The position numbers and the translations under genes were made by a program. The notes beneath the pieces are model-generated. The model did not search any database and had not been told where the DNA came from. It saw only the letters and a list, made by a program, of their open reading frames with translations. Below are positions 8,520 through 53,738 of a stretch of 64,000 nt of DNA, piece by piece (the first letter of the stretch is position 1; every line of letters starts with the position of its first letter). The DNA comes from a candidate division WOR-3 bacterium. Its GTDB lineage: Bacteria > Hydrothermota > 32-111. The stretch lies in contig JBDRZU010000001.1 of NCBI GenBank assembly GCA_039804105.1, positions 1,056,001 to 1,120,000 on the forward strand, read 5' to 3'.

Positions 8520-8522
8520 CTT

Positions 8523-9248
8523 TTATCCTCCTTTATGACATTCGATCATGTTCTCTTCAAGAACTTTTTTAAAAACTTCAAAACCTCTGTTTTCAATCGT
8601 TCCATCAAATTCAAAAGCGATATATCTTCTTCCAATCTCATCGATATAATGAGCATCAGAAGAACATATAATTTTATACCTTTCTTTGTATAAATCAACC
8701 TCTTTCGTGATTTCAACTCCATCAAGTTTTAAATCAGAAGGAATAAATCCAAGTTGCGACACTATTGAAAAATTTGGTCTATCTATATGTGAAGCAAATG
8801 CAAGCCCACCAAAACTATGAATAAGTGAAATAACCTGGTCAACAGACATTTCAGATGAAATCCCTAAAAAATAAGGATACTCATATAAAACCTCATCATA
8901 CATGTCAACAACAACCTGTTTCCCCATTTTTTCAGGATCATTTTTTATTTTTGGAAGCGTTTTTTCAAATTCTTTGTAAAAATTCTCGATACTTTCAAGA
9001 TTTTCAAAATATCCAAGTATATGAACTTCCTCTTTTGTTTGAATCTCAATTCCTGGTATCACCTCAACATCTATCATATCAGCAGCATCCATAACTCCTT
9101 TTATATTATGAATAGAGTTATGGTCTGTGATCGCAATAATGTCAAGTTTCATGAATTTTGCCATTTTTGAAATTTGAACAGGAGACATATACCAATCAGC
9201 ACATGGAGAAAGACATGTATGAATATGTAAGTCGGCCTTATGTCTCAT
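8523..9248 (-). CDS. PHP-domain phosphoesterase
   Basis: DLHIHTCLSPC, ITDHN, SSDAH. Confidence 0.92.
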   Translation of the reverse strand: MRHKADLHIHTCLSPCADWYMSPVQISKMAKFMKLDIIAITDHNSIHNIKGVMDAADMIDVEVIPGIEIQTKEEVHILGYFENLESIENFYKEFEKTLPKIKNDPEKMGKQVVVDMYDEVLYEYPYFLGISSEMSVDQVISLIHSFGGLAFASHIDRPNFSIVSQLGFIPSDLKLDGVEITKEVDLYKERYKIICSSDAHYIDEIGRRYIAFEFDGTIENRGFEVFKKVLEENMIECHKGG

Positions 9249-11656: not shown

Positions 11657-11718
11657 TTAAAATCGGGGACGGTGCTTGTTAAAATCGGGGACGGTGCTTG
11701 ACTTTTTGACATTTTTTT
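11657..11718 (+). repeat. RAYT-associated repeat copies A1/A2 (22-bp tandem duplication, second copy full length)
   Basis: TTAAAATCGGGGACGGTGCTTG twice, followed by ACTTTTTGACATTTTTTT. Confidence 0.92.
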
Positions 11719-11748
11719 GTAACTTATTCTTTTTTCGATAGATATTAC

Positions 11749-13083
11749 TTATAAACTTTTTATCATATTTACATATTTTTCAACTTCAAACTTTCTTTTT
11801 AGTCCATTTTCACTCATATATCTGACTTTTCCAAAAATTTCTCTCTCTTTAAAAGGTCTATCATGTTTTCCAAAACACCATGATATTCCCGCATATCCAT
11901 TGGAATCTCTTCCATCAAGTTCATATTTGTCGTTTAGGTAAATCAATCTTTCATACGCCTCTTCTGGAGTTTTGCTCCACTCGATCACTTTTTTACCCCA
12001 ATACATCCTCATATACCCATGCATCTTACCTTTTATAACCATCTCTTTCTGTGCACTATTCCAGAAACGATCATGAGTTTTACTGTTTTCGAGTTCTTCT
12101 AATGTGTATAAGTATTTTCTTTTATCTTTAATATGTTTTTTTAAACTCTCTTTTGCCCAATTTGGCAAAGAATCAAACTTGTCATAATTTTCGTTATAAT
12201 ATGTAAAATTTATCGCGAATTCTCTTCTAACTATCAACTCATCAAGAAAAGGATTTTTAATATTCGAATTCACTTTTAAAACCTTCAATACAATCTCAAC
12301 AGGTGAAATTTGACCAAAATGAAGATATGGACTCAGATCTGATGTAAAACTTTTTGTTGGATCGTTTTTAAAAAGTTCATACTCTTTTAACTTATTCGTT
12401 AAAAAATCTTCCAATTTATTCTTTGCCTTACTATATCCTCCTCTGTAAAATTTTGAAGATGAAACAGATCTATCACAATTTATTTTCGTTAAAAGATTTT
12501 GAATGTCTAACCTATAAAACATCTTATCCCATTTCTTCAATGGCTTTTGAATTTTTATTTCATTCAAAAAATTAGGCGCTTTTTCTATAATTTTTCTTCT
12601 GAATGTTGCTGCAGAAAATTCTTCTTTGTTAGATACTACTTCTACTGGAACAACAATGTCGGTTTCAACTTGAAAAAACGAACTTTTGATTCCTTTTATT
12701 ATTTCGCTTCTCCAACTCCTTTGTATTCTTGTATATCCCATATCTGTTATCACAAGCGATGCTTTTGAAGAATATTTTGTAACTATTTCAACAGGATCTC
12801 CAACTTCTAATATTGTTCCGATACCAAAAGATTCAAGTTTTTCAAAAGTTTCCTTTAAACCTTCAAGCATAAAAAAGTAATGCCTTAAGTTTGCGTTTGG
12901 GAAAGATGGTACTAAACAGAAAACAACAAGTAAAGGTAACTTAAATTCATTTGATTTCTCTATCGAAAAAGATAAAGCATGGTTATATTCAACTCTTTGT
13001 GATGCCTGCATCCAATATAAAACAAAATCCCCTTTTTTAACTCCATAATCTTTTAGAACTTTTATTCTTTCCTGCTCAACCAT
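11749..13083 (-). CDS. phr: Class II CPD photolyase
   Basis: VLYWMQASQRVEYNHAL, SDLSPYLHFGQIS, GKMHGYMRMYWGKK, LDGRDSNGYAGISW. Confidence 0.93.
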   Translation of the reverse strand: MVEQERIKVLKDYGVKKGDFVLYWMQASQRVEYNHALSFSIEKSNEFKLPLLVVFCLVPSFPNANLRHYFFMLEGLKETFEKLESFGIGTILEVGDPVEIVTKYSSKASLVITDMGYTRIQRSWRSEIIKGIKSSFFQVETDIVVPVEVVSNKEEFSAATFRRKIIEKAPNFLNEIKIQKPLKKWDKMFYRLDIQNLLTKINCDRSVSSSKFYRGGYSKAKNKLEDFLTNKLKEYELFKNDPTKSFTSDLSPYLHFGQISPVEIVLKVLKVNSNIKNPFLDELIVRREFAINFTYYNENYDKFDSLPNWAKESLKKHIKDKRKYLYTLEELENSKTHDRFWNSAQKEMVIKGKMHGYMRMYWGKKVIEWSKTPEEAYERLIYLNDKYELDGRDSNGYAGISWCFGKHDRPFKEREIFGKVRYMSENGLKRKFEVEKYVNMIKSL

Positions 13084-13085
13084 AT

Positions 13086-14339
13086 TTAAAGATGGAATTT
13101 TTTAATATAACCTTTTATTAAATTTTTTGGGTCATAAAATTTAACAAGATCTTTTAGCTTCAATTTCTTTAAGGATCTTTTTGGTTCACCCTTTTTATAT
13201 TGTTTGATGAAATCCAGAATTTGAAGTGAACCTTTTTCTATTGAACACTGATTTTTTGCAAACTCATAAGCTTTTTCAGAAATTTTTTCTAAACTCAAAT
13301 CATCTTTTTCAATTTTATCAAAAAAATTCATCAAAGAAACTTCAAAATTGTTAATATCTATTGAAAAAACGCAATCTTTTGGTATATCCTCAAAAGATTT
13401 TTCTCTAATTATTGCGGTTGGTATTCCAAACCCTAAAAATTTTATCAAATTACTAGACATCTCTCCTCTTACGGGATATCTAATGTTTATCGCATAATCA
13501 CATTCTTTCATCAATTTTAAAAATTTTTCATCGTCGACCTCTTTGAAAATCTCACAATACTGTTCAAGATTTTGCTTTTCTATTATTTTTTTAAGATCTA
13601 TATCAACATCCTCACCAACAATCCTTAGTATAATCTGTCTCGTTGAACCATTTTGAAACTTTTTAAAAACTTGTAAAGTTTCCTCTATCATCCTGTCTTT
13701 GGAAAGGTATCCAAAGATTCCAACAGTTATTTTTTCTTTTTTTAATCGATCCACTTTCTCTACCCATGGACATATATGATTTATTTTTAAAACCTTAGCT
13801 TCTGGATTTATTTCTGTTATAAGATTTTTTGCATATTCTGAATGAACAATAAAATGGTTATTCGAAAGAGCAATTTCACGTAGCAAAGGGAAATCAACAA
13901 AAAGGTTTCTATCTTTTCCTTGGTTGTTTAAAAGTTGTTTAATTTTTTGAAAGTCATCCGTTTCATTGAGTAAATATTTCAAATACAGGAATGGTTCTTT
14001 ATGCTGTATAGATCTATAATACAAAAGATCATGTAGATTTAGATCATGAAGAAAAACTATTCCAGGTTCTTTCAATGCTTTTTCATAAGAAGGAAGATGT
14101 AATGGATGGTTTCCGAGAGAATATATTAAAAGATCAAAATCACCATCGCGAACCAAATCGATGTAAATTCCATTTCCATTTCGTGTTGCAGAAACAGGGA
14201 AAAAATCAAATTCTACACTCTTTTTCAACTCTTTCAAAAGCACTTCTGAATAAACCGAAATTCCCGACCTAACAGGTGGAAAAGGACTTACCCACCCTAT
14301 TTTTTTCTTATTCGGGGACGGTGCTTGACTTTTTGACAT
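13086..14339 (-). CDS. GT4-family glycosyltransferase
   Basis: WVSPFPPVRSGISVYS, YSLGNHPLH, PGIVFLHD, NIRYPVRGEMSS. Confidence 0.85.
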   Translation of the reverse strand: MSKSQAPSPNKKKIGWVSPFPPVRSGISVYSEVLLKELKKSVEFDFFPVSATRNGNGIYIDLVRDGDFDLLIYSLGNHPLHLPSYEKALKEPGIVFLHDLNLHDLLYYRSIQHKEPFLYLKYLLNETDDFQKIKQLLNNQGKDRNLFVDFPLLREIALSNNHFIVHSEYAKNLITEINPEAKVLKINHICPWVEKVDRLKKEKITVGIFGYLSKDRMIEETLQVFKKFQNGSTRQIILRIVGEDVDIDLKKIIEKQNLEQYCEIFKEVDDEKFLKLMKECDYAINIRYPVRGEMSSNLIKFLGFGIPTAIIREKSFEDIPKDCVFSIDINNFEVSLMNFFDKIEKDDLSLEKISEKAYEFAKNQCSIEKGSLQILDFIKQYKKGEPKRSLKKLKLKDLVKFYDPKNLIKGYIKKFHL

Positions 14340-15225
14340 TTTTCTCCTTTTCCCTTTTATAAATTGTTCCTAAAGAAGACAGTTGAAGTGTTTTAAAATA
14401 TTTTATTCTCGATATTTGCCTATATGTTAAAAGATATTTATCGTGTAAAAAAACAAGTAACTCTGCTCTTAATTTTTTCCAGAAATTTTCGCTAAAATTT
14501 GCTTTTTTAAAGTCAATATTTTTTTCTTTTTCAAACTCATGTATCAACTCTTCAATTTCTAAGTTTCTTTCTTTTTTTGTCCTTATGTTCGTAAAAGTAT
14601 TTTCAGTTTTTCTTCTATCAAATTTTTTCATCGCTTCTTTAAAAAATTCTTCGCTTCCAAGAAATTCTCCAACTCTTGATTTTTTCACAGGTAAATTTTT
14701 TCTCTCCCAAGCTTTCAAAGATTGATTTAGCTGTTTTATATTTCCAAAAAGTTCTTCAACTTTTTCTTTGGCAATAAAACTTTCGGTATCAGAAAAATAG
14801 TGGTTTATACTTGACCATTGATAATCAAACGGATTTTCAACTATATCTGCTTTTACAGGATTTAGCAAGGTGTATATGATAGACATTTTCAAATACTTGT
14901 CATCCTGTATCAGTGTTGATTTAAACCTACTTGCAAAAACATATCCTCTACCTCCAAAATTTTTCCTATAATATATTCCATAAGAACCATCAAGTTCTTT
15001 TATAAACTCTGATAATAAATTTTTATGATTTTTTATAACTAAGTGAAAATGGTTTTTCATCAAACAATATGCATAGATTTCCATGCCATATTTTTTTGAT
15101 AAAATCTCAAGAAGTTCAAGAAAATGTTGCTTTGCTTTTGGATTGAAAAATATCTTTTCATTTTTAAACCCTCTGTTCATAATATGATGGTATGAACCTT
15201 CATACTTAACTCTTGCTCTTCTCAT
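14308..15225 (-). mobile_element. REP-associated tyrosine transposase (RAYT, Y1 HUH) with C-terminal HTH-like extension
   Basis: YHHIMNRG, AYCLMKNHFHL (HUH), YTLLNPVKA..YQWSS; SD GGGAGGAG; flanked by inverted repeats. Confidence 0.9.
14314..14343 (+). repeat. RAYT-associated repeat copy B
   Basis: GGGGACGGTGCTTGACTTTTTGACATTTTT. Confidence 0.95.
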
Positions 15226-15270
15226 TACTCCTCCCCGTTTTTTAACTTATCATATTTGATAAGGTTACAC

Positions 15271-15300
15271 AAAAATGTCAAAAAGTCAAGCACCGTCCCC
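15271..15300 (-). repeat. RAYT-associated repeat copy C (inverted relative to B)
   Basis: AAAAATGTCAAAAAGTCAAGCACCGTCCCC, the exact reverse complement of copy B. Confidence 0.95.
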
Positions 15301-15666
15301 GATAATAGTTACAATTTTTCTTTTTTTGCGGATCAGACGGATTTGAGGGAAGGGAATTTTTTTATCTTTGATTTCATGAATTTTTTTGTAACCCTTTTCG
15401 GTTAGAACAAGATATTTCTCTCTCTTATCTGTTTCTGAAACTAGTTTTTTTAAAAAACCTTTTTTTATAAGTTTTTCAGTGATCTTTGTCATCCTCGGTT
15501 TTGAAACATAAAGTTCTTTTGAAAGTTGTGTAAGATCCATTTTTTTCTCACTGATCGTACACAATACCATCGCTTCATTCATCGTAAGTTTTGTCTCCTT
15601 TTTGAGATTGTAGTCAAAAAGGTAGAGTTCTTTGAAAATTTTTTTAAGATAACAGATTTTTTCCAT
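15286..15666 (-). CDS. MarR-family transcriptional regulator
   Basis: wHTH LTQLSKELYVSKPRMTKITEKL...DKREKYLVLTEKG. Confidence 0.9.
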   Translation of the reverse strand: MEKICYLKKIFKELYLFDYNLKKETKLTMNEAMVLCTISEKKMDLTQLSKELYVSKPRMTKITEKLIKKGFLKKLVSETDKREKYLVLTEKGYKKIHEIKDKKIPFPQIRLIRKKRKIVTIIGDGA

Positions 15667-15679
15667 AAACTTTTAAAAT

Positions 15680-15698
15680 TAGTTAATATTGTTAACTA
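15680..15698. promoter_or_regulatory. Probable MarR operator palindrome
   Basis: TAGTTAA-N5-TTAACTA overlapping the -10/+1 of the marR promoter (TTGACT-N17-TATAGT). Confidence 0.55.
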
Positions 15699-15795
15699 TA
15701 TAACAAAAAATTAAAAAAGTCAATAATTCTCTATTAATCAATAATCTCAAAAATTTTTAAAAATTATGATTTCTAAAAAAATGTAAATTTTTCTA

Positions 15796-15823
15796 TTGAC
15801 ATTTTTCTGAAAAGATTTAAAAT
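15796..15823 (+). promoter_or_regulatory. Sigma70-type promoter of the mbx operon
   Basis: TTGACA-N16-TAAAAT. Confidence 0.65.
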
Positions 15824-15843
15824 TGAAAAAAATCGGGAGTATT

Positions 15844-16350
15844 ATGGATAAAAAATGTTCCATTTCCAGTTTTTTTAACTCTTTTTTATTTTTTTTCGTA
15901 ATCTATCTTTTTCTCACCTACCCTTTTAACATTCAAGAAATTTTAACAGGCTTTCTTGTTTCAATTATTCTTGTGTTTCTTTTTAAAAATTTTCTTGATT
16001 ATTTTTCGTTAAAAATACCTTTATTTTTATCTCTGTTTCATCTTTTGATTTACATTTTCTATCTTTTGTTCGAAATTGTCAAAGCGAACCTTAATGTTGC
16101 AAAAATAGTTCTTTCTCCAAGAATCAATGTGAACTCTGCTATAGTGTCTTGTAGAACACAATTAAAATCTGAACTTGCAAAATCGATTCTTGCCAATTCG
16201 ATCACATTAACTCCTGGAACTCTCTCGGTTGATATTGATGGTGATACGCTGTTTATACATTGTATTGATGTTAAATCTACATCTGAAGATGATGTTTATA
16301 AAAATATTGTCAAACCGTTTGAAGATAAAATAAAGAGGTTTGCATTATGA
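15844..16350 (+). CDS. Mrp/Mbx subunit A (MnhE-like)
   Basis: KANLNVAKIVL, LANSITLTPGTLSVD; start ATG 15844 after GGGAG (TTG 15823 is an alternative). Confidence 0.9.
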   Translation: MDKKCSISSFFNSFLFFFVIYLFLTYPFNIQEILTGFLVSIILVFLFKNFLDYFSLKIPLFLSLFHLLIYIFYLLFEIVKANLNVAKIVLSPRINVNSAIVSCRTQLKSELAKSILANSITLTPGTLSVDIDGDTLFIHCIDVKSTSEDDVYKNIVKPFEDKIKRFAL

Positions 16351-16610
16351 ATACTTTATATACTGTTTGGTTTATCATCCTTGGATTATCGGTACTACTT
16401 ATACTGTTTAGATTTTTTAAAGGGCCCCTTATTCAGGATCGGACAATCGCTCTTGATATGTTTACAACGATCTCTTCAGGTGGTCTTGTTTTGATCGCTT
16501 CTTTTTTGGAAAACCTACTTATTTTAGACATCTCTCTTGTTTATGCAATTCTCTCTTTTGTATCGGTTGTAGCTATTTCAAAATATCTTGAAGAGAGAGG
16601 TTCAAAATGA
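16347..16610 (+). CDS. Mrp/Mbx subunit B (MnhF-like)
   Basis: RFFKGP..DRTIALD, LDISLVYAILSF. Confidence 0.9.
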   Translation: MNTLYTVWFIILGLSVLLILFRFFKGPLIQDRTIALDMFTTISSGGLVLIASFLENLLILDISLVYAILSFVSVVAISKYLEERGSK

Positions 16611-16930
16611 ACATAATAGGCATTATTCTGATTTTCATAGGAGTAATTTTTTCTTTACTTGGAAGTATTGGGATATTAAGGATGAAAGATTTATACAACA
16701 GATTACAAACTTCAACAAAAGCAACCACTCTTGGTGCTTTTTCTACAATAATCGGTGTTGGTTTTTTGCATCCATCATGGTTTTTCAAACTCATTCTCAT
16801 ATCTTTTTTCATTCTCATAACAGCCCCTATCGCTTCCCATTCACTCGCAAGAGCATCACATAAAACAGGAGTAGCACTAAAAAAAGATCAGTTCGATGCT
16901 TTAAAAAACGAAAATGGAGAAACAAAATGA
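16607..16930 (+). CDS. Mrp/Mbx subunit C (MnhG-like)
   Basis: GILRMKDLYNRLQTSTKATTLG, TAPIASHSLARA. Confidence 0.92.
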   Translation: MNIIGIILIFIGVIFSLLGSIGILRMKDLYNRLQTSTKATTLGAFSTIIGVGFLHPSWFFKLILISFFILITAPIASHSLARASHKTGVALKKDQFDALKNENGETK

Positions 16931-17169
16931 TATTCTGGATTTTTATTTTTATTTTCGTTCTTTCGATAATTCTTTCTATCATCTCAATCCTTGTAAAAGA
17001 TCTTCTGTATTCCGTTCTATCCCTTGCTCTTTTAAGTTTGATAACATCTATACTTTTTCTTATTTTAAATGCTCCTGATGTAGCAATCACTGAAGCAGCA
17101 GTTGGAGCGGCTTTAACAACTGTTATCTACATCTTTGGAATCAGAAGAACAAAAAGGGAGGATGAATGA
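16927..17169 (+). CDS. Mbx subunit D (DUF4040/MnhB-N-like)
   Basis: APDVAITEAAVGA. Confidence 0.9.
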   Translation: MIFWIFIFIFVLSIILSIISILVKDLLYSVLSLALLSLITSILFLILNAPDVAITEAAVGAALTTVIYIFGIRRTKREDE

Positions 17170-17996
17170 GAGAAACAGATTTTAATGTTGGAAAATTTTT
17201 TGCTTTTATTTTTGTTATGATCATTTTTTTATTTATGATTTCTTCACTTTTTGAAGAAGGGAACGGTCTAAAACTTGATCCAACTCTAAAAGATATAAAA
17301 AATAGAATATCTTATTTCCATTCCTTAAAATCGGTCAAGGAAAGTGAACGAATCCTTCAGAATTATAACGATTTTTCAAGATATAGAGAAATAGTTGATA
17401 GTGCAAAAACGATCACCTTAAATGAATCAAAAGATCTTGAAAATGGTTCAGCGAACCTTGTTACATCTATTGTTCTTGATTATAGGGGATTCGATACACT
17501 CGGGGAACTTCTTGTGCTTTTCATTTCGATTCTTGGACTAACAATCATACTTTCAGGGTTATCTTTTGAAAAGTTCAAAGAACCATCTTTTTTACAGATT
17601 ACAGGTGTAAAATTTATTTCACCTTTTATAACTCTTGTTGCTATCTATGTATTTTTACATGGACATCTTTCCCCAGGCGGTGGATTCCCCGCAGGAGCAA
17701 TGATCGCAACCGCCACACTTTTTTCACTGATTGGGTATAAATACAGTTACACCATATCCATTCTTAAAATCATCGAATCAAAATCTGGTTTTTTAATAGT
17801 TTTTCTTGCAATCTGTGGACTATATTTTACAGGTTCATTTTTTAGCAACTTTTTACCAACTGGAAAAGTTGGAGAACTTTTCAGTTCAATTTTGATTCTT
17901 ATCATCTATTCCCTTGTTGGATTTAAAGTTGGTGCGGAACTTTCAACAGGTATAAAAACCCTTTACGATGGAGAAAAAGATGCAAATAGACAATAG
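17166..17996 (+). CDS. Mbx subunit E/F fusion (MnhB-like)
   Basis: NLVTSIVLDYRGFDTLGE, HGHLSPGGGFPAG. Confidence 0.9.
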   Translation: MRETDFNVGKFFAFIFVMIIFLFMISSLFEEGNGLKLDPTLKDIKNRISYFHSLKSVKESERILQNYNDFSRYREIVDSAKTITLNESKDLENGSANLVTSIVLDYRGFDTLGELLVLFISILGLTIILSGLSFEKFKEPSFLQITGVKFISPFITLVAIYVFLHGHLSPGGGFPAGAMIATATLFSLIGYKYSYTISILKIIESKSGFLIVFLAICGLYFTGSFFSNFLPTGKVGELFSSILILIIYSLVGFKVGAELSTGIKTLYDGEKDANRQ

Positions 17997-18351
17997 AACT
18001 TTATATATTTTTTCTTTCATTATTTTTCTGATAGGAGTTTATGGGGTGATTACCAACAAAAATCTCTTCAAAATCCTTATATCTTTAAGTATAATGGAAA
18101 CAGCATTAAATATTTTTCTTGTATCAATAGGCTACATATCAGGATCAAAACCACCAATACTATTTTCTGGAATGAAAACAATTTCTCCTACAAATATAAA
18201 TATTTCTGATCCATTACCTCATGCATTGGTTTTAACAGCAATAGTGATAGGTGTTGGAACAACTGCTGTTGGAGTTGGACTTGCGATAAAACTTTTTAAC
18301 CACTATAAAACTTTAAATATCAACAGAATGGGAGATAAAGATGAATTATAA
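17980..18351 (+). CDS. Mbx subunit G (MnhC-like)
   Basis: DPLPHALVLTAIVIG; start after GGAG. Confidence 0.92.
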   Translation: MQIDNRTLYIFSFIIFLIGVYGVITNKNLFKILISLSIMETALNIFLVSIGYISGSKPPILFSGMKTISPTNINISDPLPHALVLTAIVIGVGTTAVGVGLAIKLFNHYKTLNINRMGDKDEL

Positions 18352-19861
18352 TCCACCTGTTCTTCTCATAGCGATACCTGTTTTATCCTCTTTTCTCTCA
18401 CTTATTTTTGGAATTTACAACAAACTACTATCAAAAATAATCCTTGTCATAACAGTACTTTTCAATCTGATTTTTGGAGTTTTTCTTCACAATCTCGTTT
18501 TAAAAAATGGTAACATTCTTACAGTTATTGGCAACTATTTTCCTCCTTTTGGAATAAACCTTTTGATCACATATTTTTCAATTTCACTACTTCTTTTACT
18601 CTATTTAATATTTTTTGTGTCATCATTAATTTTCGTAGTAAAAAAAGATGAAAGAGCAGATAAAATATCTTCTCTTCTTTTGTTATATCTTGCATCTTTT
18701 TCAGGTATTTTACTGACTGGCGATCTTTTCAACATGTTCGTTTTTATTGAAATTTTCTCGATAGCAAACATAACACTAATTTCGTTAAAAGGGAACCAAT
18801 TATCAACAAAAGGATCTTTAAAGTATCTAATAATAACCTCAATAGGTGCTTCACTTTTTCTTTTTGGCACAGGATTTTTATATGGAATTTTGGGAACCTT
18901 AAACCTTGCTGAAATATCGTTAAATTTTGATAAGATATCTTACTTTTCAAAAATTTTCATCTTTTTGTTCTTTCTTGGCTCAATCATGGCTGAACTTGAA
19001 GTTTTTCCTTTCAACTTCTGGATCTCTGATTCCTATTCTGGTTCAAGAAATTTTGTCAATATACTTTTAAGTGGTTTAAGTTCGATAGTCGCGCTCTATA
19101 TATTTGTAAGATTGTTTATAACGATTTTTGGTTTACCAACATTTACGACGATCTCTTATTCTTTACCTTTCAATGTAAAATTCCTTTTACCAACAATCTT
19201 TGGTTTATCTGTTATAGTCAACGAACTTGCTGCTTTATCATCCAAAAATGTCAAAAGGGTTCTTGGATTTTCATCAGCATCATCATTATCTTTGATTCTT
19301 CTGTCAATATCAACCGGTCAGAAAGATGGAATCATCTCTGCAATTTTGATAGGGATTTCGGTTATACTATCTAAACCACTTTTGTTTCTCTCATCCCATC
19401 AGATAATGAAAGGAATAAAAGATAAAAATATCGATTCGTTTACAGGTGGTTTTCGTAAGCATCCTTTGTATTCAATACTTTTTATAATCGGAGTTTTCAC
19501 TCTTATTGGATTTCCACTAACTCCTTCATTCTATGGAAAATTTTTGTTATTTATCCTTGCAACCGAAAAAGTATCCTACATCACTTTAATCACAATAGTT
19601 ATAATTTTCTCTATAACAATAGAACTTTTTTATTACTTTAGGCTGATCCATAAACTTTTTATTCCTTCAGAAGAGAAATTTCATTTTGAGAAAACAAAGA
19701 AAAATTTTGCGTATATTTTTTCCGGATTATTGCTCACTTTAATAATAATCTTGATTTCAATAAAACCATATTTTACACAGAACATAGTTGAAAAGGCAAC
19801 AGATGATATTTTCTATAAATCAGGTTATATAAAAAGTTGTTTAAAATCAGGAGAAAAATGA
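18341..19861 (+). CDS. Mbx subunit H (MnhD-like antiporter subunit)
   Basis: TGDLFNMFVFIEI, GTLNLAEI; highly hydrophobic. Confidence 0.9.
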   Translation: MNYNPPVLLIAIPVLSSFLSLIFGIYNKLLSKIILVITVLFNLIFGVFLHNLVLKNGNILTVIGNYFPPFGINLLITYFSISLLLLLYLIFFVSSLIFVVKKDERADKISSLLLLYLASFSGILLTGDLFNMFVFIEIFSIANITLISLKGNQLSTKGSLKYLIITSIGASLFLFGTGFLYGILGTLNLAEISLNFDKISYFSKIFIFLFFLGSIMAELEVFPFNFWISDSYSGSRNFVNILLSGLSSIVALYIFVRLFITIFGLPTFTTISYSLPFNVKFLLPTIFGLSVIVNELAALSSKNVKRVLGFSSASSLSLILLSISTGQKDGIISAILIGISVILSKPLLFLSSHQIMKGIKDKNIDSFTGGFRKHPLYSILFIIGVFTLIGFPLTPSFYGKFLLFILATEKVSYITLITIVIIFSITIELFYYFRLIHKLFIPSEEKFHFEKTKKNFAYIFSGLLLTLIIILISIKPYFTQNIVEKATDDIFYKSGYIKSCLKSGEK

Positions 19862-21750: not shown

Positions 21751-22634
21751 ACAACTATATTATAAGATTTTTGTTCGCTGCTTTTTTATCGATTATACTT
21801 GGACTTCTTTATATGGGAATCGGAAGAAAATATATTGCAAGAATCAGAAGATGTTATGCAGGTCCATTCTACCAATCTTATATTGATGTGATAAAACTTT
21901 TTTCAAAAAAATCGATATCTCACAACTGGATAATGGATTTTGGAGTGATGATGGGTTTTGCAGGTATTATAGCAACTGTAATCTTTCTTCCAATCGGTCC
22001 ATTCACCGTTTTCCCTGATATGAAGGGAAACCTTATCGTTATAATGTATTTTATGACTATTGGATATCTTGGAATGGCTATGGGTGTTGCAGCATCTGGT
22101 AATCCAAATGCAACTATCGGTATCGCAAGAGCTCTTGCTTTGATGGTTGGATATGAGATTCCCTTCGCTCTTGCTGTTATTCTACTTGTTTTTGTAAACA
22201 AATCTTCACTTCTTGCAGACATTATAACCACACAACAGGGTTCAATCTTACATTGGAACGCTTTCAGATATCCATTCGCTTTTGTTGGCTCTTTGATCGC
22301 TTTACAGGGAATGCTTGGGGAGCAACCTTTTGATGCTATGATCGCTCCAGCAGAGATCGCTTCAGGACCAATGGTTGAACTTTCAGGGAAATTTTTGGGT
22401 TTTGGTTTTCTTCAACATGGTGCTCAAATATTTTTAGAGACCGGAATAATCGCTGCAATGTTTTTAGGTGGTGGGACATTTTTAGGATTCTTTTCAAAGC
22501 AGTTGTTTTTATATTTGATAACACTTTCGATCGCTGCTGTTTTTCCAAGATACAGATTTGAGGATGCTGTAAAATTCTTCTGGATCATTCCAACATCTCT
22601 CGTTCTAATGCAACTTTTAATCTTTTTAATTTAG
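21744..22634 (+). CDS. Mbx subunit M (NuoH-like)
   Basis: RKYIARI..GPFYQSYIDVIKL, PFDAMIAPAEIASGPMVELSG, PRYRFEDAV. Confidence 0.9.
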   Translation: MVNNYIIRFLFAAFLSIILGLLYMGIGRKYIARIRRCYAGPFYQSYIDVIKLFSKKSISHNWIMDFGVMMGFAGIIATVIFLPIGPFTVFPDMKGNLIVIMYFMTIGYLGMAMGVAASGNPNATIGIARALALMVGYEIPFALAVILLVFVNKSSLLADIITTQQGSILHWNAFRYPFAFVGSLIALQGMLGEQPFDAMIAPAEIASGPMVELSGKFLGFGFLQHGAQIFLETGIIAAMFLGGGTFLGFFSKQLFLYLITLSIAAVFPRYRFEDAVKFFWIIPTSLVLMQLLIFLI

Positions 22635-22643
22635 AGGTGTATT

Positions 22644-23201
22644 ATGTTGTTAACTTCAACAAAAGATTTAAAGGATAAAGGGTTCGAAGAGATTTTGAAC
22701 TTCTTTAGAAAAAAATCTTTATGGATGCTTCATTACTGTACAGGGTGTGGTGCTGTTGAACTTCCTCCAACTATGACCTCAAGATGGGATATGGAAAGAT
22801 TTGGTATGGGACCTATGGCAACTCCCCGTCAGGCAGATCTTTTACTGATTACAGGCTATCTTTCAGTCAAATCTTTGAAAAGAGTAATTTACACCTATGA
22901 ACAGATGCAAGAACCAAAATGGGTTATTGCATTTGGTTCATGTCCTATAAATGGTGGTATATACTACGACTCCTACTCTGTTATAAACCGTCTTGCTTTA
23001 TATTTGCCTGTTGATTTATCTATAGAAGGTTGTATGCCAAGACCTGAAGCGATCATTGATGGTTTCACGAAACTTATGAAACAGATCGAAAAAGGTGAAG
23101 CTATAGGATATAAAAAATATAAAGAGAATTACGAGTGGTACAAGAAAAATCAAAGAGAAGTTCTTGAAAGAACAACTCCGGTTTTAGAACAGGAGGAATA
23201 G
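22644..23201 (+). CDS. Mbx subunit J (NuoB-like)
   Basis: CTGCGAVE, TPRQAD, FGSCPINGG, GCMPRPE. Confidence 0.93.
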   Translation: MLLTSTKDLKDKGFEEILNFFRKKSLWMLHYCTGCGAVELPPTMTSRWDMERFGMGPMATPRQADLLLITGYLSVKSLKRVIYTYEQMQEPKWVIAFGSCPINGGIYYDSYSVINRLALYLPVDLSIEGCMPRPEAIIDGFTKLMKQIEKGEAIGYKKYKENYEWYKKNQREVLERTTPVLEQEE

Positions 23202-23692
23202 TGGAACAAAAAGAGTTGATCAGATATATTGAAGAAAATTTTAAATACAACAAAAAAATTCAAAAAATCGATGAAAAACAATTTTCGATAACTGTTGAGA
23301 AAGATAAAATTCTAAATATTCTTTCATTCTTAAAACTTATCGATTTTAAACAACTCGCTTTAATAACCGCTGTTGACTGGATCAAAGAAAACAAATTTGA
23401 AGTTGTTTACATTCTCTTTTCTTATTCCCATGTTCAACAGATTCTTGTAAAAACATTTATCGATCGAGATAAACCAGAAATTGAAACTATAAAAACTCTA
23501 TGGGAAGTTGCTTCGATGTATGAAAGGGATGTTCATGAATTTTTTGGTATCGACTTTATTGGAAACGATGATAAAAGACCTTTGATTTTGCATAACTGGA
23601 AAGATAAACCACCACTCAGAAAAGATTTTGATTCTTTGAAATATTCAAACAAAATTTTTGGAAAATTCAAAAAGGACGAGGAAAATGACTGA
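23201..23692 (+). CDS. Mbx subunit K (NuoC-like)
   Basis: ITAVDW, YERDVHEFFGIDFIG, PPLRKDF. Confidence 0.92.
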   Translation: MEQKELIRYIEENFKYNKKIQKIDEKQFSITVEKDKILNILSFLKLIDFKQLALITAVDWIKENKFEVVYILFSYSHVQQILVKTFIDRDKPEIETIKTLWEVASMYERDVHEFFGIDFIGNDDKRPLILHNWKDKPPLRKDFDSLKYSNKIFGKFKKDEEND

Positions 23693-24821
23693 AATATTAA
23701 CATATCTTGGAAAAGATCAACAATACGAAAAGTATGAACTCTTCTTTGGTCCAAACCATCCTGGAATGCATGGAAATTTTTCCTACATATTAACTGTTGA
23801 AGGACACACGATAAAAAAGGTTGATCCTGATCCAGGTTTATTACATAGAGGTTTTGAAAAACTTGCAGAAAGAAGAAAATGGATGCAAAATATAGCGTTG
23901 ATACCAAGGATTTGTGTCCCTGAGCCAGATATAAATGAGGTTATATATTCAATAGCAGTTGAAAAACTTATGGGAGTTGAAATCCCATTAAGAGCACAGT
24001 ATATAAGAACGATAATCCTTGAAATGGCTCGTATAGGATCTTTCCTTTTCGGTTTTGGAGGAATCGGTGGAGCGACTGGCCTTTACACAGCATCATACTG
24101 GTCATTTTCTGATCGAGATTATCTACTCGATCTTTTTGAATGGCTCACAGGTGCAAGAGTTTATCATATGTTTATAATACCAGGTGGAGTTAGAAGAGAT
24201 TTACCTTCAGGATGGATAGATAAACTTTCAGAAACTGTTGATTATTTACAAAAGAGATTGTATGAATATGATAGGTTGATTTATAACAATCCTCTAATAG
24301 TAAAAAGATTGACAGGTATTGGAAAGTTAACAAAAGAGGAAGCAATAGAGTATGGTATCACTGGACCAAATTTAAGAGCAACAGGTGTAAAATATGATAC
24401 AAGGAAGATGGTGCCTTATGCTGCTTATGACAGAATTGATTTTGAGATACCAATACAAAAAGAAGGTGATGGACTTGCACGAGCGATACAGAAAAGAGAA
24501 GAATTTCAATTAAGTTTAGATATTATCAAAAAAGCGATAAAAGATTTACCTGATGGACCTGTTAGAGCAAAGATGCCAAATCCACTCAAATTTAAAGTTC
24601 CAAAAGGTGAAGTTTATGTTAAGATCGAATCTTCAAGAGGAGAACATGCTTACTATATTGTATCTGATGGATCTGATAAACCATACAGAATGGCTGTGAG
24701 AGGTGGATCATACACAGCAGGTCTTGTGTTAGCACAAAAAATCCTTGTTGGAATGAGAATTGAGGATGTTGCTTTATGGATGGCAACTATGGATATTTGT
24801 CCACCAGATTTTGATAGATAA
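23685..24821 (+). CDS. Mbx subunit L (NuoD-like, MBS catalytic-type)
   Basis: GPNHPGMHG, GLLHRGFEKL, RICVPEPD and DICPPDFDR: only one Cys per NiFe motif. Confidence 0.92.
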   Translation: MTEILTYLGKDQQYEKYELFFGPNHPGMHGNFSYILTVEGHTIKKVDPDPGLLHRGFEKLAERRKWMQNIALIPRICVPEPDINEVIYSIAVEKLMGVEIPLRAQYIRTIILEMARIGSFLFGFGGIGGATGLYTASYWSFSDRDYLLDLFEWLTGARVYHMFIIPGGVRRDLPSGWIDKLSETVDYLQKRLYEYDRLIYNNPLIVKRLTGIGKLTKEEAIEYGITGPNLRATGVKYDTRKMVPYAAYDRIDFEIPIQKEGDGLARAIQKREEFQLSLDIIKKAIKDLPDGPVRAKMPNPLKFKVPKGEVYVKIESSRGEHAYYIVSDGSDKPYRMAVRGGSYTAGLVLAQKILVGMRIEDVALWMATMDICPPDFDR

Positions 24822-24830
24822 GGAGAAAAA

Positions 24831-26687
24831 ATGGATTACAAAAAGAAATCTATACTTGGTCCTTTAAGTTCTTTAAAATATCTTTTCAAAGATCCAATAA
24901 CTGTAAGGTATCCAAAAGAGAACAAAAAAACATATCCTGATGTTGAAGGTGTTTCACCACAATATCGAGGAAGACACATAAACGATCTTGAAAAATGTAT
25001 CGGATGTGGAACATGTATGGACATCTGTCCAACTGGCGCTATCGAGATGGTCGAGTTTGATGATGTAAAAGAAAAGTTTGGTGCAACAAAAAAAAGACCG
25101 GTTATCGATTATGGCAGATGTTGTTTTTGTGCTTTCTGTGTTGATGTTTGCACATCCTCATCTTTATCAATGTCACGTGAATTCATTAACAATTTTACAA
25201 CACCGATTGACTCTTTTATGGATAAACAGGGTGAAGATATTTCAAAAAATTTTATATTACGACCTGACACGAGATTTTCAAACAATCCTGGTTGGACAAC
25301 AAACAATGAATACTCCTGGCTTGAACTTGAACGAGTCGTAATGGGCATTTTTGATGCAAACACAAGAGTTGAATCATTTCTTGAAATGGTCAAAGGTTAC
25401 ACAAAAGAAGAGGCAATAAAAGAAGCAAGAAGATGTGTTGCTTGTGGTTTGTGTAAAGATGCATGTCCGATCCATATGGATATACCCGAATACATCCAGG
25501 CGATTTTTAATGATGATGTAAAAGAATCTGTGAAACAGATTTATAAAACTAATCCTCTTCCTGAGGTTTGTGGTCGTGTATGTACTCATAAATGCGAAAC
25601 AGCATGCTCAATAGGTCACAGAGGAGAACCTGTTGCTATAAGGTGGCTTAAAAGATATGCTGTTGATTCTTTACCACTTGAAGATTATACAAAAATTCTA
25701 CAAACAAAACCGATAAAACAGATAAATAAAAAGATCGCTATAATCGGTGGTGGTCCTGCTGGATTATCATCTGCATATTTCCTGTCTCTTATGGGATACA
25801 AAATCACAGTGTTTGAAGAGAATGAAAAAGTTGGTGGAATAATGAGGTATGGAATCCCTGCATACAGGTTACCTGATTATGCTCTTGACAAAGATGTTGA
25901 CTTCATAAAATCAATTGGTGTTGAGTTTAAAACAGGTTATAAGATGGATAAAGAAAAATTTCAAAAAATATACAACGATTTTGATGCAGTAATACTTGCA
26001 ACAGGTTTCAACCTTGGTAGATCAACAAAAGTTCCTGGAACAGAAAAAGAAGGTGTTATTCAAGCACTTGATTTTTTACAGGAAGTAAGGGAATTTCTAA
26101 CAGGAAAAAGAAAAGATGTAAAAATCACCGATAATGTTTTGGTTATAGGTGGTGGCAATGTTGCTTTCGATTGTTCAAGAAGTGTCGCAAGATTACAAAA
26201 GATGAAATATGGAAAGGTAAAAGTCACACAGGTGTGTCTTGAAACACTTGACATTATTCCTGCTGATAAAGAAGAAGTAGAAGAGAGTGCAGAAGAGGGA
26301 GTAGTTTTAATCTGTGGCAGAGGTCCAAAACAAATAGTTATCGGAGAGGATGGACATGTAAAAGGTCTTGATTCTATGAAATGTGAATCGGTTTTTGATG
26401 AGAATATGAATTTCAATCCAAAATTCAACGAAGAGGACAGGTTGATCTGTGAAGCAACAATGATAATCGAAGCGATTGGACAGGCACCAGATTATTCATA
26501 CATTCCTGATGAGATAAAAAGTAAAATGAAATTTGAAAGGGGTAAAATAGTTCTTGATAAAGATTTTTCAACTGGTGTTGATAAAATTTTTGCTGCAGGA
26601 GATATTGTAAGAGGACCTGATATTGTCAACGGAATCGCAACAGGTCTTAATGCAGCGATTGGTGTTGATAAAAAATTTACTTCTTAA
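24831..26687 (+). CDS. Mbx subunit N (NuoI-like 2x4Fe-4S) fused to GltD-like FAD/NAD(P) oxidoreductase
   Basis: CIGCGTCMDICP, CCFCAFCVDVC, then EARRCVACGLCKDACP, CGRVCTHKCE, GGGPAGL, GGGNVA, FAAGD. Confidence 0.9.
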   Translation: MDYKKKSILGPLSSLKYLFKDPITVRYPKENKKTYPDVEGVSPQYRGRHINDLEKCIGCGTCMDICPTGAIEMVEFDDVKEKFGATKKRPVIDYGRCCFCAFCVDVCTSSSLSMSREFINNFTTPIDSFMDKQGEDISKNFILRPDTRFSNNPGWTTNNEYSWLELERVVMGIFDANTRVESFLEMVKGYTKEEAIKEARRCVACGLCKDACPIHMDIPEYIQAIFNDDVKESVKQIYKTNPLPEVCGRVCTHKCETACSIGHRGEPVAIRWLKRYAVDSLPLEDYTKILQTKPIKQINKKIAIIGGGPAGLSSAYFLSLMGYKITVFEENEKVGGIMRYGIPAYRLPDYALDKDVDFIKSIGVEFKTGYKMDKEKFQKIYNDFDAVILATGFNLGRSTKVPGTEKEGVIQALDFLQEVREFLTGKRKDVKITDNVLVIGGGNVAFDCSRSVARLQKMKYGKVKVTQVCLETLDIIPADKEEVEESAEEGVVLICGRGPKQIVIGEDGHVKGLDSMKCESVFDENMNFNPKFNEEDRLICEATMIIEAIGQAPDYSYIPDEIKSKMKFERGKIVLDKDFSTGVDKIFAAGDIVRGPDIVNGIATGLNAAIGVDKKFTS

Positions 26688-26733
26688 ATTTTAGCTTAGA
26701 AAATACGAAAAAGTTTATAGTTTATATTTAAAT

Positions 26734-27282
26734 TTAAACAATAATTGCAAACTCTTTGAATTTTTTTCGAATAGGTCTTTTTGTTTCTTGCTCTTTTTGC
26801 CAATCACTCATCAAATCGTTTACTTTCCTATCATGTTTCCCAACTATTATCAAAGCAATAACATTATCATCTTTTTCAAGATTGAAATTATTTTTTATTT
26901 TTTCAACATCATAACCTGCTATCGTATGAGCAACAAGTCCCATCTCTGTTGCTCTTAATACTAAAAAACCAACAGAAATTCCTGTATCGAAAAGATAATA
27001 TTCTCGTTTTTTGATAACACAATCGTAATCTTTTTTTGAATAAATGATTATTACCATCGATGCTTTTGTTGCCCATCTGTTACCCTCTGGTAAAGATTCA
27101 AAAACTTTTTTTAAATTTTTTTTACTCTTAACAAAAATAAATCGCTCTGGTTGTTTATTGAAACATGAAGGAGCAAGAACTGCACATTCGGCCAAATTTT
27201 TAATTAGTTTGTTGTCAATTTTAACCGGCTCAAGGGAACGAAAAGATCTTCTTTTTTTTATAGTTTTATATACACAATCCAT
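26734..27282 (-). CDS. Nitroreductase family protein
   Basis: IKKRRSFR, LAPSCFNKQP, LRATEMGL. Confidence 0.9.
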   Translation of the reverse strand: MDCVYKTIKKRRSFRSLEPVKIDNKLIKNLAECAVLAPSCFNKQPERFIFVKSKKNLKKVFESLPEGNRWATKASMVIIIYSKKDYDCVIKKREYYLFDTGISVGFLVLRATEMGLVAHTIAGYDVEKIKNNFNLEKDDNVIALIIVGKHDRKVNDLMSDWQKEQETKRPIRKKFKEFAIIV

Positions 27283-27391
27283 AGAACCTCCATTTAAAAA
27301 ATTTTATCAAATATCAAAAAAATTTCCATTAAAATTTTTTTGGCTCAAAAAATTTTGGTAAAAATTAGAAGATTAAATGAAGAAATTCTTA

Positions 27392-27754
27392 TTAAAAATC
27401 TTCAAATTTTCTGCAATGTCGTCTTATTCTATGTTGTTTACCAAAATTATCAGTGAATTTATTTTTGAAAACAACATTTCCACCTTCAATTTTCAGAGTT
27501 TTTCCATTTACAATAGAATCTGCAATTTTTTTATGAGCAGAATTTATAATATTTCCAAATGTTTGCCTTGATATTCCCATCAATTTTGCTGCCTCTTCTT
27601 GATACAAACCTTCAAGATCAGCAAGTCGTATCGCTTCAAGTTCATCTTTTTCGATAACAATTTCATCAAGCAAATTTTTTGGAACTCCAGCAGGTTTAAA
27701 ATAAACAACATTTGGTTCAAACCAAATAGTTCTAAATTTTTTTGGCCTTGGCAT
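27392..27754 (-). CDS. DUF134/UPF0251 HTH DNA-binding protein
   Basis: MPRPKKFR..FKPAG..ELEAIRLADLEGLYQEEAAKLMGISRQTF. Confidence 0.92.
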   Translation of the reverse strand: MPRPKKFRTIWFEPNVVYFKPAGVPKNLLDEIVIEKDELEAIRLADLEGLYQEEAAKLMGISRQTFGNIINSAHKKIADSIVNGKTLKIEGGNVVFKNKFTDNFGKQHRIRRHCRKFEDF

Positions 27755-27814
27755 ACAGTTTAAAATCCTCGGTTTTTTATTTATGAAATATTGTTTAAAA
27801 TTACCATTGTTATA

Positions 27815-28207
27815 TTAATGCTTATGGTTATAGTTGTGATGGTGGTTGTGATCATGTTTATGGTTATGATCGTGTTCATGATGACATGTTTTTTCCCCAA
27901 ATTTTAAAGAATCGTTAGCAAAATCTCTTGCAATGTTTTCAACCGTGTCGATTTTAACACCTTCTATAACCTTGATCTTTTTGAACTCAAAAATCTTTTT
28001 TGCATTATCACCAATGCTTCCAACAATCACAACTTCAATATTCTGTTTTGAAAGCCAATTAGGAATAACTCCCGGCTGATGTGGTGGAGGTGTTAGTTGT
28101 TCAATCAATTTTACATTACCATTTTCAATTTCATAGATAAAAAACTGTGGACTGTGACCAAAATGAGAAGAAAGATTGTTGTTTTCACCAGCGATAGCGA
28201 TTCTCAT
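27815..28207 (-). CDS. NifB/NifX-family (MTH1175-like) protein with His-rich tail
   Basis: MRIAIA..SSHFGHSPQF; C-terminal CHHEHDHNHKHDHNHHHNYNHKH. Confidence 0.88.
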   Translation of the reverse strand: MRIAIAGENNNLSSHFGHSPQFFIYEIENGNVKLIEQLTPPPHQPGVIPNWLSKQNIEVVIVGSIGDNAKKIFEFKKIKVIEGVKIDTVENIARDFANDSLKFGEKTCHHEHDHNHKHDHNHHHNYNHKH

Positions 28208-28473
28208 TTTTCCTCCCTTTCAGTATTATTTTCAACCATTTTTTTCAGTTCGTTAAGATATTTTTCCGTGTTTTCGATTTTCTTTTTTAACCCTTCATTT
28301 GAAAGTTCACCTGATTCACCTCTGAATCCAAACCTTCTCTGGTTTCTGTTATAACATTTTCTTCCTCTTTTTCCAGTTATAAATCCTGGCTGTTTATAAC
28401 CAGAACAATAACCAAATCCTCTACCTGTTCTTGGACCAAATCCTTCAAGACCTCTTCCATTTCCTCCAGGCAT
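28204..28473 (-). CDS. DUF5320 Gly/Arg-rich protein
   Basis: MPGGNGRGLEGFGPRTGRGFGYCSG, C-terminal coiled coil. Confidence 0.85.
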   Translation of the reverse strand: MPGGNGRGLEGFGPRTGRGFGYCSGYKQPGFITGKRGRKCYNRNQRRFGFRGESGELSNEGLKKKIENTEKYLNELKKMVENNTEREEK

Positions 28474-28491
28474 GATACCTTCTTTTTGTTT

Positions 28492-28532
28492 TTAGCATAT
28501 GCTAATTATAATTAAATTTTCCATTTCGTCAA
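28492..28532 (-). promoter_or_regulatory. Promoter with overlapping palindromic operator
   Basis: TTGACG-N16-TATAAT immediately followed by perfect palindrome TTAGCATATGCTAA (28492-28505). Confidence 0.7.
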
Positions 28533-28621
28533 GGTGTTTTTTTAAATCATCAATGAAAAATTTTATAGAAAATTAATTGTTATACATGCAGATAATTGTT
28601 GAAATTTTTGCTATTTACAAT

Positions 28622-28650
28622 AAAATGTCAAAATGTCAAGCACCGTCCCC
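28622..28650 (-). repeat. RAYT-associated repeat copy D
   Basis: AAAATGTCAAAATGTCAAGCACCGTCCCC (one mismatch to consensus). Confidence 0.93.
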
Positions 28651-28672
28651 AATTTAGATAAATTTTTTTGTT

Positions 28673-29385
28673 TCAGGGTGAAATTAATTCTCCATGTTGA
28701 AAAACTTTTAAACCAGTAATTTCGTGCCAAGTTTCATTTTCTGTTAATTTTTCCGTTGCTATAATTATTGCTTTTTCATCTGGAGATTTTATATCTGCCA
28801 AATTAATTTCATATTGAACATCTTTTAATTTTACAAATTCAAAAGGTGCTTTTCTTTGAGTATAGAATAAACGATCGTCACCATAAGCATAAAGTTTTCT
28901 TCCATCTGAAATGAGAAAATTCAATCTTCCATACCTTTTAATTACATCAGATTCTTTTTCTAATATTTTTTCGATTTCTTTTGTATTGCTTTGTATCTTT
29001 TCCATTAAATAACAAAAAATATGTTCTGAGTCAGTTTTTCCTTTTGGTTCTAAAATTTTAAGCGATAGGTTGTTTATATTTACAGTTCCATTATGGGCAA
29101 AGATCCAATTATTTATTTTAAAAGGATGGGTATTATCGTGATTTTGAGCTCCACATGATGCCAATCGAACATGCCCTATGATTATTTTGCTTTTAAAGGT
29201 AAATTCTTTTTTTGTAATATCTTCTTTTTCTAAAGAATCTGGTTTTTTAAGAATCTCCCACTTACCATTTTCAAAAAAGCAAATCCCCACCCATGGTTAT
29301 TTATTTTACCCCTATATTGAAACTCTTTCAAAGAAAACTGGACATCCACTTCTTTATTAGAACATACACCCAATAATTGACACAT
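28673..29385 (-). pseudogene. Class II glutamine amidotransferase (YafJ/EgtC-like), split by a frameshift in a T-run
   Basis: ATG 29385 gives MCQLLG...NHGWGFAF; the other frame continues FFENGKW...GHVRLAS..NTHPF..FAHNG..GKTDSE; T6 at 29273-29278 where T7 would restore the frame. Confidence 0.85.
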
Positions 29386-29431
29386 TTCCCCTCCTTTTTA
29401 AAATTTTATTTCTTTTTATCAATTAAAATTT

Positions 29432-29460
29432 GGGGACGGTGCTTGACTTTTTGACATTTT
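29432..29460 (+). repeat. RAYT-associated repeat copy E
   Basis: GGGGACGGTGCTTGACTTTTTGACATTTT. Confidence 0.95.
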
Positions 29461-53737: not shown

Positions 53738-53738
53738 A

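Follow-up and report, generated by a model that had tools for sequence, protein, structure and literature searches.

Does a short repeat without any hairpin, dispersed around a lone transposase gene, mark places where a Y1/HUH enzyme brings accessory genes into a chromosome and rearranges them there? The question is raised by a 64,000-nt stretch of DNA from a candidate division WOR-3 bacterium (GenBank assembly GCA_039804105.1, contig JBDRZU010000001.1, positions 1,056,001 to 1,120,000), hereafter the window, to which as a whole our coordinates refer unless another contig is named. A first-pass annotation had proposed for it a distinct class of RAYT (tyrosine transposase associated with repetitive extragenic palindromes, REPs), whose repeat would mark sites of insertion or shuffling of unrelated cargo genes. 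In this work, we analyzed the repeat and the enzyme in the window's own genome (G000; 1.81 Mb in two contigs, C1 and C2) and in the relatives G001 to G004. We identify the repeat as the terminal inverted repeat of the only Y1/HUH gene found in a search of G000, gene and repeats together forming a TIRtron, an element class already known; in addition, there is good comparative evidence, drawn from sequence, that its scattered ends mark, and sometimes bound exactly, exchangeable blocks of genes.

The window contains exactly five matches to a 29-mer (copies A to E, Table 1), and not one of 100 shuffles gave a match. These five, together with a partial copy starting at 11665 (A'), agree with the five full copies and one partial copy previously reported. 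The partial lies inside an exact tandem duplication of 22 nt (11657-11678 and 11679-11700), and it represents a strain-level duplication, since a contig of sequencing run X1 lacks those 22 nt. Copies B and C enclose the Y1 gene, as the annotation had stated, as perfect inverted repeats with the G-run facing outward, forming a pair of 32 nt. The repeat 30-mer folded into no stem on either strand and the 29-mer contains no GTAG, again as claimed, although the unit had once been called a 28-mer. The description of every copy as lying at a boundary between an operon and a stand-alone gene needs amending, given that B and C overlap the adjoining genes and do not lie between them. Across G000 there are 40 matches at up to five mismatches, 28 of them exact; 37 of the 38 copies examined are not deep within an open reading frame (ORF), and the base preceding the G-run is a pyrimidine in 38/38 copies of G000, 36/36 of G001 and 56/59 of G002 and G003. 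No consistent orientation relative to gene starts was found among the G000 copies, and no strong replication-strand bias was evident when their orientation was compared by eye with the cumulative GC skew. An imperfect palindrome sits just inside the left TIRtron end, with a fold z of -1.45 that 13 of 200 shuffles equalled, and a degenerate palindrome motif, picked after inspection, lies behind 9/38 copies (shuffle mean 2.6). The Rfam scan of 10500-38000 returned no family, viral contigs gave 0 repeat matches, and 11 plasmid records showed partial protein matches, none covering 80%. A metagenome scan produced nine stretches, with no new empty or filled allele beyond DNA resembling that of G002 and G003. 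As for their distribution, 27/40 copies fall within C1:1016-1390 kb, a stretch that makes up one fifth of the genome and surrounds the minimum of GC skew close to parA/gidB, and zero copies lie in C1 1-260 kb and 710-1,016 kb.

The TIRtron occupies the same position in G001, G002 and G003. In G004, marR adjoins the glycosyltransferase gene (orthologue 53% identical) with neither TIRtron nor repeats, and this genome, 99% complete, has no Y1 gene. The element now stands in place of the marR stop codon, of the spacer and of the first glycosyltransferase codons, and no target duplication was seen. In G000, G002 and G003, the glycosyltransferase ATG (14337-14339 in the window) is in copy B and the marR stop (15286-15288) in copy C. 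Copy B would then supply the start codon of the glycosyltransferase, and ends that provide both this ATG and the marR stop would lock the element in place.

The encoded protein, P0001, carries the motifs NHFH at 58-61 (H59-x-H61), YTLLNP at 118-123 (Y118, N122-P123) and S138-S139; 66 homologues were aligned, and at least 90% of them retain H59, H61, Y118, N122, P123, S138 and S139. The alignment-based structure model reached a pLDDT (predicted local distance difference test score) of 92.7, compared with 44 for the single-sequence model, and has a helical C-terminal domain; Foldseek returned E. coli TnpA-REP (PDB 4ER8) as its best match and IS608 TnpA as the next. The family profile matches DnaA over positions 161-301 (E 2.5e-4), and two homologues match TIGR00362. 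The ratio of non-synonymous to synonymous substitution rates of the gene is 0.14-0.25 overall, being 0.25 against G002 and 0.20 against G003.

Repeat and enzyme vary together across genomes. Of 15 related Y1 loci, 14 are flanked by an inverted pair of their own and the other runs into a contig end; over these 15 loci the G-run end is broadly kept and an 8-nt subterminal doublet changes with the protein. Counts of the 14-nt core were 36 in G001, 27 in G002, 32 in G003 and 0 in G004, with 0, 0, 1 and 0 for the pattern read backward as a control. Among 40 genomes, the 11 without a Y1 match have 0 or 1 match to a broad pattern, and all 11 with at least five such matches possess a Y1 match; the single broad-pattern match of G004 is a different variant on a 3.2-kb contig. 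Solo copies carry their own genome's variant in 23/32 cases in G003, 14/26 in G002 and 33/40 in G000, which includes shared sites such as thiI-gidB, and the G000-type exceptions in G002 and G003 sit in blocks unusually similar to G000 or G001. These patterns suggest that renewal or selection keeps the copies matched to the enzyme of their own genome. At C1:599283 and 1054077, the same intergenic sites hold copies of opposite orientation in G000 and G001 compared with G002 and G003, suggesting that the same sites may have been used repeatedly.

As described in the first-pass annotation, D and E are inverted with their G-runs inward around a single glutamine amidotransferase gene, to which we add that the gene is frameshifted and that the whole insertion is absent from three relatives. 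Together, the two copies and the cargo add ~1,040 bp at a position where the spacer of G002 is about a dozen bases long and holds no copy; D-E and its cargo are likewise missing from G003 and G004, and the amidotransferase is found in 1/20 genomes, namely G000. By this sequence comparison, D-E is a true insertion. The real start of the gene lies at 29385, a one-base frameshift falls in a T run and the long ORF lacks the N-terminal Cys; the frameshift is probably not an assembly error, because an X1 contig covers the gene without a gap.

Copies A and B, in contrast, do not enclose a cassette as had been proposed, because the glycosyltransferase is a core gene that stands beside marR in repeat-free G004 and the photolyase abuts it with no repeat between them. 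The photolyase is present in 4/20 genomes, including G000 and G001. Site A itself appears to be a cassette site, empty in G000 and filled in G001 between two direct copies: contig C15 of G001 runs from the hydrogenase-side flank through a copy into the 3' end of a gene for a secreted protein, and in contig C18 a copy stands between other DNA and the photolyase end, the two contigs being unjoined so that the filled form can only be deduced. Of the 17 small G001 contigs (C4-C20, 0.5-1 kb), twelve are centred on a repeat copy; most of the small contigs come from a region that the assembly otherwise lacks, and they are probably a by-product of read recruitment. G002 and G003 have no photolyase; a pyrimidine dimer DNA glycosylase gene lies beside a copy a few kb from the same glycosyltransferase.

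Elsewhere in the genome, exact alleles were found. At 709.6 kb, the single copy of G001 equals copy 1 of G002 for 77 nt upstream and copy 2 of G002 for 419 nt onward, so that a 5,567-bp unit, which contains two secreted-type genes, is either there or missing and the crossover falls inside the repeat. At 261-264 kb, a gene for a 722-aa LVIVD protein lies between two copies in G000, where G001 has one copy, and two genes between two 288-bp mini-elements are present or absent in the same pattern. The second copy of the 288-bp mini-element spans the C1/C2 assembly break, beside a Cas9 locus, and versions of ~110 bp occur in G006 and G009. Between inward-facing copies at 1,266-1,291 kb, G000 has an island of 24 kb with restriction-modification, Kiwa, Abi-like, AAA and surface genes; at the same site G002 has a type I-B Cas operon, G003 has other genes, and G004 is empty and without a copy. 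Its arm at C1:1281-1291 kb contains seven copies of the same orientation in G000 and nine in G001, in changed order, and the homology blocks of the reordered G001 island begin at the G-run. Breakpoints of rearrangements in G002 and G003 also lie at some of the copies. Clusters of GTAG-type REP hairpins were observed inside several repeat-bounded units, and no second Y1 gene was found in G000 or G001; these clusters may have come in with the cargo.

Gene content was compared between G000 and three large G001 contigs (1.57 Mb, ~89% identical), which miss ~260 kb of G000, including the window. The comparison listed 23 gaps, and 21 variable loci were left once one assembly gap of G000 had been dropped and two rows of an island merged. 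Five of these 21 have a copy within 350 nt of the boundary. Among spacers, 10 of the 22 bearing a copy touch a gene-content boundary against 21/290 others (p 6e-6), and when copies were grouped by hand into 12 sites, five of these differ in gene content against 16 of the 290 other spacers (p 6e-4), p values that overstate the effect because the compared genomes are kin and not independent. Around 59 copies of G002 and G003, 41/105 adjacent genes lack a close G000 orthologue, compared with 36/249 genes further off at the same loci. The copies are thus not randomly placed, and most gene turnover happens without them. The original proposal that the repeat marks insertion and shuffling sites is upheld as to the enrichment of copies at variable loci, D-E and site A; its other part, capture driven by the enzyme, would be a step beyond these observations, and 16/21 variable loci have no copy within 350 nt (three of the 16 have one within ~1.1 kb). 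A second, independent route of island gain is seen in a 5.5-kb island that G001 lacks (locus L298, G000:C1:191310-196768): no repeat copy is present, and the island holds a methylase, a ThsB-like TIR protein and a broken serine recombinase.

The junctions leave footprints. DNA is cut off ahead of copies, homology often ending 8-11 nt before the G-run, and in the clearest truncation a DUF2130 gene stops in mid-frame at a distance of 10 nt. Scanning genome contigs for tandem partial copies gave 94 stretches, and the figures that follow rest on 81 matches in the 80 stretches listed: 22 of the 81 have a second copy resembling a terminal inverted repeat, 10 of these 22 being exact duplications, and all ten exact tandem duplications among those listed carry 7-14 nt counted from GGGACGG, a range picked post hoc with a search pattern that itself imposes a minimum of 6 nt on the shortest ones. 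Two candidate rules were rejected here. The partials of other genomes end at positions 8-28 and so rule out a nick always made behind base 14, the position to which three partials had pointed; hypermutation limited to the G side is not supported by 16 sites unchanged between G000 and G001, whose first 10 nt are 79% identical on the G side and 82% on the tail side. None of the 15 contig joints listed, out of 26 from four runs, lies at a copy; the contigs of these runs break at most copies, so the joints are no evidence either way on inversions or circles of B-C and D-E.

How could these seams have arisen? HUH enzymes act with a defined polarity, through a 5'-phosphotyrosine. We favor, with a probability of about one half, a scheme in which the enzyme would seed solo ends and join their G-run side to unrelated DNA, blocks between copies being exchanged afterwards by crossover within the repeat. 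The C-terminal helical domain would bind the 8-nt subterminal doublet, and the HUH/Tyr core would nick at the G-run or up to ~11 nt outside it, hold the 5' end on Tyr118 and join it to any free 3'-OH (see PMC6006769 for the chemistry). Joining of this kind would account for solo ends, for truncated genes, for short duplications of the flanks and for cargo held, as in D-E, between G-runs that face inward; pairs of direct copies would then let blocks be lost, gained and reordered, either by the Y1 enzyme or by host recombination. The enzyme is likely to help attach defence and surface genes at copy-bearing seams. The bolder proposal, that TIRtrons are an HUH-driven capture and cassette system in which a domesticated Y1 protein welds its 29-bp end to incoming DNA and excises and reinserts blocks among dozens of copies, is offered tentatively, and we regard it as rather doubtful.

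Several observations weigh against the joining scheme, besides the kinship of the genomes, the post hoc range of the duplications and the copy-free loci already mentioned. Seven of the 12 copy sites are unchanged between G000 and G001. Copy A has the photolyase on its T-tail side and not on its G side, and polarity towards the G side fails as a rule: variable DNA lies on the G side only at 17 copies and on the tail side only at eight (p 0.11), which is a trend. The left joint of the TIRtron in marR is at the G-run itself, with no foreign 10 nt, and together with the crossover inside the repeat of the 5,567-bp allele it means that there is no single fixed cut position. P0001 searched alone gave no Pfam match in its C-terminal half. 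Finally, the distribution of a serine recombinase matches that of the repeat, as discussed below.

The best surviving alternative, possible although we consider it unlikely, is that the copies are passive markers: the enzyme would spread only its own ends and mini-elements, which survive in islands already variable, and host slippage or homologous recombination would delete DNA between direct copies, with no capture. The copy-free majority of variable loci and the presence of copies at unchanged sites such as thiI-gidB fit this well, as do stretches of 29-33 identical bases, exact alleles whose crossover point within the repeat is what host recombination would give, the existence of mini-elements in G000, G006 and G009, and the fact that gain and loss are unpolarised for most direct pairs. 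It explains less readily how D-E came with its cargo into a position where G002, G003 and G004 have no copy, or why, at the island site, G000 and G002 carry different cargo between copies that face inward when G004 has neither cargo nor repeat there; moreover, the reordering and the truncations seen at G-runs are more than simple deletions.

At the other extreme stands a full integron-like system, in which cassettes bounded by the repeat would be cut out by the Y1 enzyme as single-strand circles, each with one repeat, and put back at other copies. The one- and two-copy alleles with crossover inside the repeat, the changed order of the seven and nine same-orientation copies, related cargo at different repeat sites across genomes and a cargo rich in defence and secreted proteins would all be expected from it. 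We nevertheless judge it improbable, as no array lies beside the enzyme gene, no common promoter or gene orientation is apparent, both repeat orientations occur at one site in different genomes, cargo is multi-gene and reaches at least 10 kb, and no circle was seen among the data, which are contigs only.

Very improbable, in our view, is the use of the repeat, or of the palindrome behind it, by another recombinase, either a solitary 285-aa serine recombinase or XerC/D. The serine recombinase is present in G000 to G003 and was not found in G004, the same pattern as the repeat, and the degenerate palindrome behind 9/38 copies might be its site; its gene, however, is ~93 kb from the nearest copy, and the repeat, besides being asymmetric, varies in step with the Y1 protein. 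The two PF00589 tyrosine recombinase genes of G000, at 656 kb and 1,329 kb, are of types that both also occur in repeat-free G004. Least credible of all are regulatory sites, that is, copies kept for gene control because a domesticated protein binds them through its C-terminal domain or because the TTGACA in the repeat serves as a portable -35 box: the location of 37/38 copies outside the depth of ORFs and the conservation of the repeat against flanks ~80% identical between G000 and G001 agree with this, but the catalytic residues are kept in the homologues, TTGACA is absent from several related ends, orientation to gene starts is inconsistent and the exact one- and two-copy alleles are left unexplained.

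It is tempting to consider what the capture and cassette proposal would mean if true, namely a single-strand equivalent of the integron that stocks and reshuffles restriction-modification, Kiwa, DarTG, CRISPR-Cas and secreted surface proteins. If the enzyme makes the joints, this would explain why bacteria retain these genes and would provide a new route for building defence islands; if it does not, the copies keep their value as markers of defence and surface genes that can be exchanged. This small genus is a clean test case in either event, with one Y1 gene, a near-invariant 29-bp site, a relative without both, exact alleles and a predicted nick zone.

Table 1 Features of the window and of related loci. 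Ranges without a contig or locus name are window coordinates.
Feature	Position	Strand	Remarks
Partial copy A'	11665..11678	+	First 14 nt of the repeat; inside exact 22-nt tandem duplication
Solo copy A	11687..11715	+	29-mer match
Class II photolyase, accessory	11749..13083	-	PF00875, TIGR00591; tail side of copy A
Glycosyltransferase, core gene	13086..14339	-	PF00534; sole upstream in-frame ATG lies within copy B
TIRYT, 305-aa Y1/HUH transposase (P0001)	14308..15225	-	PF01797, E 3.5e-12
Copy B, right terminal inverted repeat of TIRtron	14314..14342	+	Overlaps last Y1-gene codons and first glycosyltransferase codons
Imperfect palindrome	15237..15268	-	Just inside left TIRtron end, upstream of Y1 start
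Copy C, left terminal inverted repeat of TIRtron	15272..15300	-	Last four codons and stop of marR
MarR-family regulator, core gene	15286..15666	-	3' end in copy C; G004 orthologue 51% identical
Solo copy D	28622..28650	-	One mismatch; G-run towards cargo; absent from G002, G003, G004
Class II glutamine amidotransferase, D-E cargo	28673..29385	-	PF13230; frameshifted near 5' end
Solo copy E	29432..29460	+	G-run towards cargo; absent from G002, G003, G004
288-bp mini-element	G000:C1:1386957-1387244		Both ends facing as in TIRtron
Pyrimidine dimer DNA glycosylase gene	L033:5576-6019 (G003), L034:812-1255 (G002)		Profile-scanned protein is that of G003
Solitary 285-aa serine recombinase	L297:3049-3906 (G000:C1:168049)		PF00239 and PF07508; just upstream of uvrA-like ORF (named from sequence)
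REP hairpin clusters	L039 ~4650-4780; L051 ~12180-12500; L035 ~8500-8600 and 9990-10190; L026; L029		GTAG type

Two further observations concern other repeats of the window. A CRISPR array of 26 identical 30-nt repeats, spaced 68-76 nt, lies on the plus strand at 35684-37525 between addAB and the transketolase gene; no cas gene adjoins it, and G004 has no array at that place. Short repeated motifs (direct repeat families D4, D8, D13 and D18) occur in two ORFs, at 53235-53964 and 53972-54180.

With respect to known systems, the idea of a distinct RAYT class has to be given up, as the class is already described and named: TIRtron, with its enzyme TIRYT, by Di Nocera, De Gregorio and Rocco 2013 (PMC3733652), and TnpA-Y1 subclass 2.1 by Quentin et al. 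2018 (PMC6006769), the latter assignment resting on motifs and flanks. As in the TIRtrons of PMC3733652, the Y1 gene lies between terminal inverted repeats and not REP hairpins, the repeat overlaps the 3' end of the gene, and the same repeat also forms a dispersed family of moderate abundance; that work reports dispersed families of such repeats in some genomes. The motif GGGGWSAS is common to some terminal inverted repeats described there, others being unrelated to it, and the G-run end here, GGGGACGG, fits 7/8 of its positions. The accessible text of PMC3733652, which calls for in vitro assays still to come, is silent on copies marking gained, lost or reordered genes, on one- and two-copy alleles and on junction footprints. 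A literature search found no paper linking TIRtrons to cassettes, within a coverage that leaves subscription journals mostly outside.

Subclass 2.1 corresponds to RAYT group 1 of Bertels et al. 2017 (PMC5581495) and, in the available part of PMC6006769, is the largest RAYT-like group, found in 14.9% of strains and with no function assigned. P0001 shares with subclass 2.1.2 the motifs NH[YF]H, Y---NP and a downstream SS (Table 1 of PMC6006769), a low copy number and the lack of REP hairpins, and its long helical C-terminal extension may be related, like that of the subclass, to DnaA domain IV; P0001 differs in its length (305 aa versus a median of 238) and in having YTLLNP and not Y[IV]HLNP.

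Compared with classical REPtrons (E. coli TnpA-REP, 4ER8; subclasses 2.2 and 2.5), the catalytic fold, the single gene per repeat family and the dispersed extragenic repeats that track the enzyme are the same, whereas the repeat of P0001 has no hairpin or 5' GT[AG]G, the protein has 140 extra C-terminal residues, and its NF047646 score remains below the cut-off (59.7 versus 80 bits). With the IS200/IS605 elements (IS608, ISDra2) it shares the HUH/Y1 fold, the lack of a visible target duplication at the TIRtron site and a base preference 5' of the end. In contrast to those elements, P0001 scores below the cut-off of NF033573 (23.2 versus 55 bits), is single copy, has 305 aa and not the ~150 of TnpA, and carries Y---NP and not Y---Q, while the TIRtron has inverted ends and not subterminal hairpins and shows no evident strong replication-strand bias.

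Integrons (IntI, attI and attC) share several traits with the system described here: short repeats partition accessory genes, one- and two-site alleles exist, and reordered arrays are rich in defence genes. The enzyme here is an HUH protein and not a tyrosine recombinase, no array stands beside it, the cargo is often multi-gene, and the sites are non-palindromic, near-identical and scattered in both orientations.

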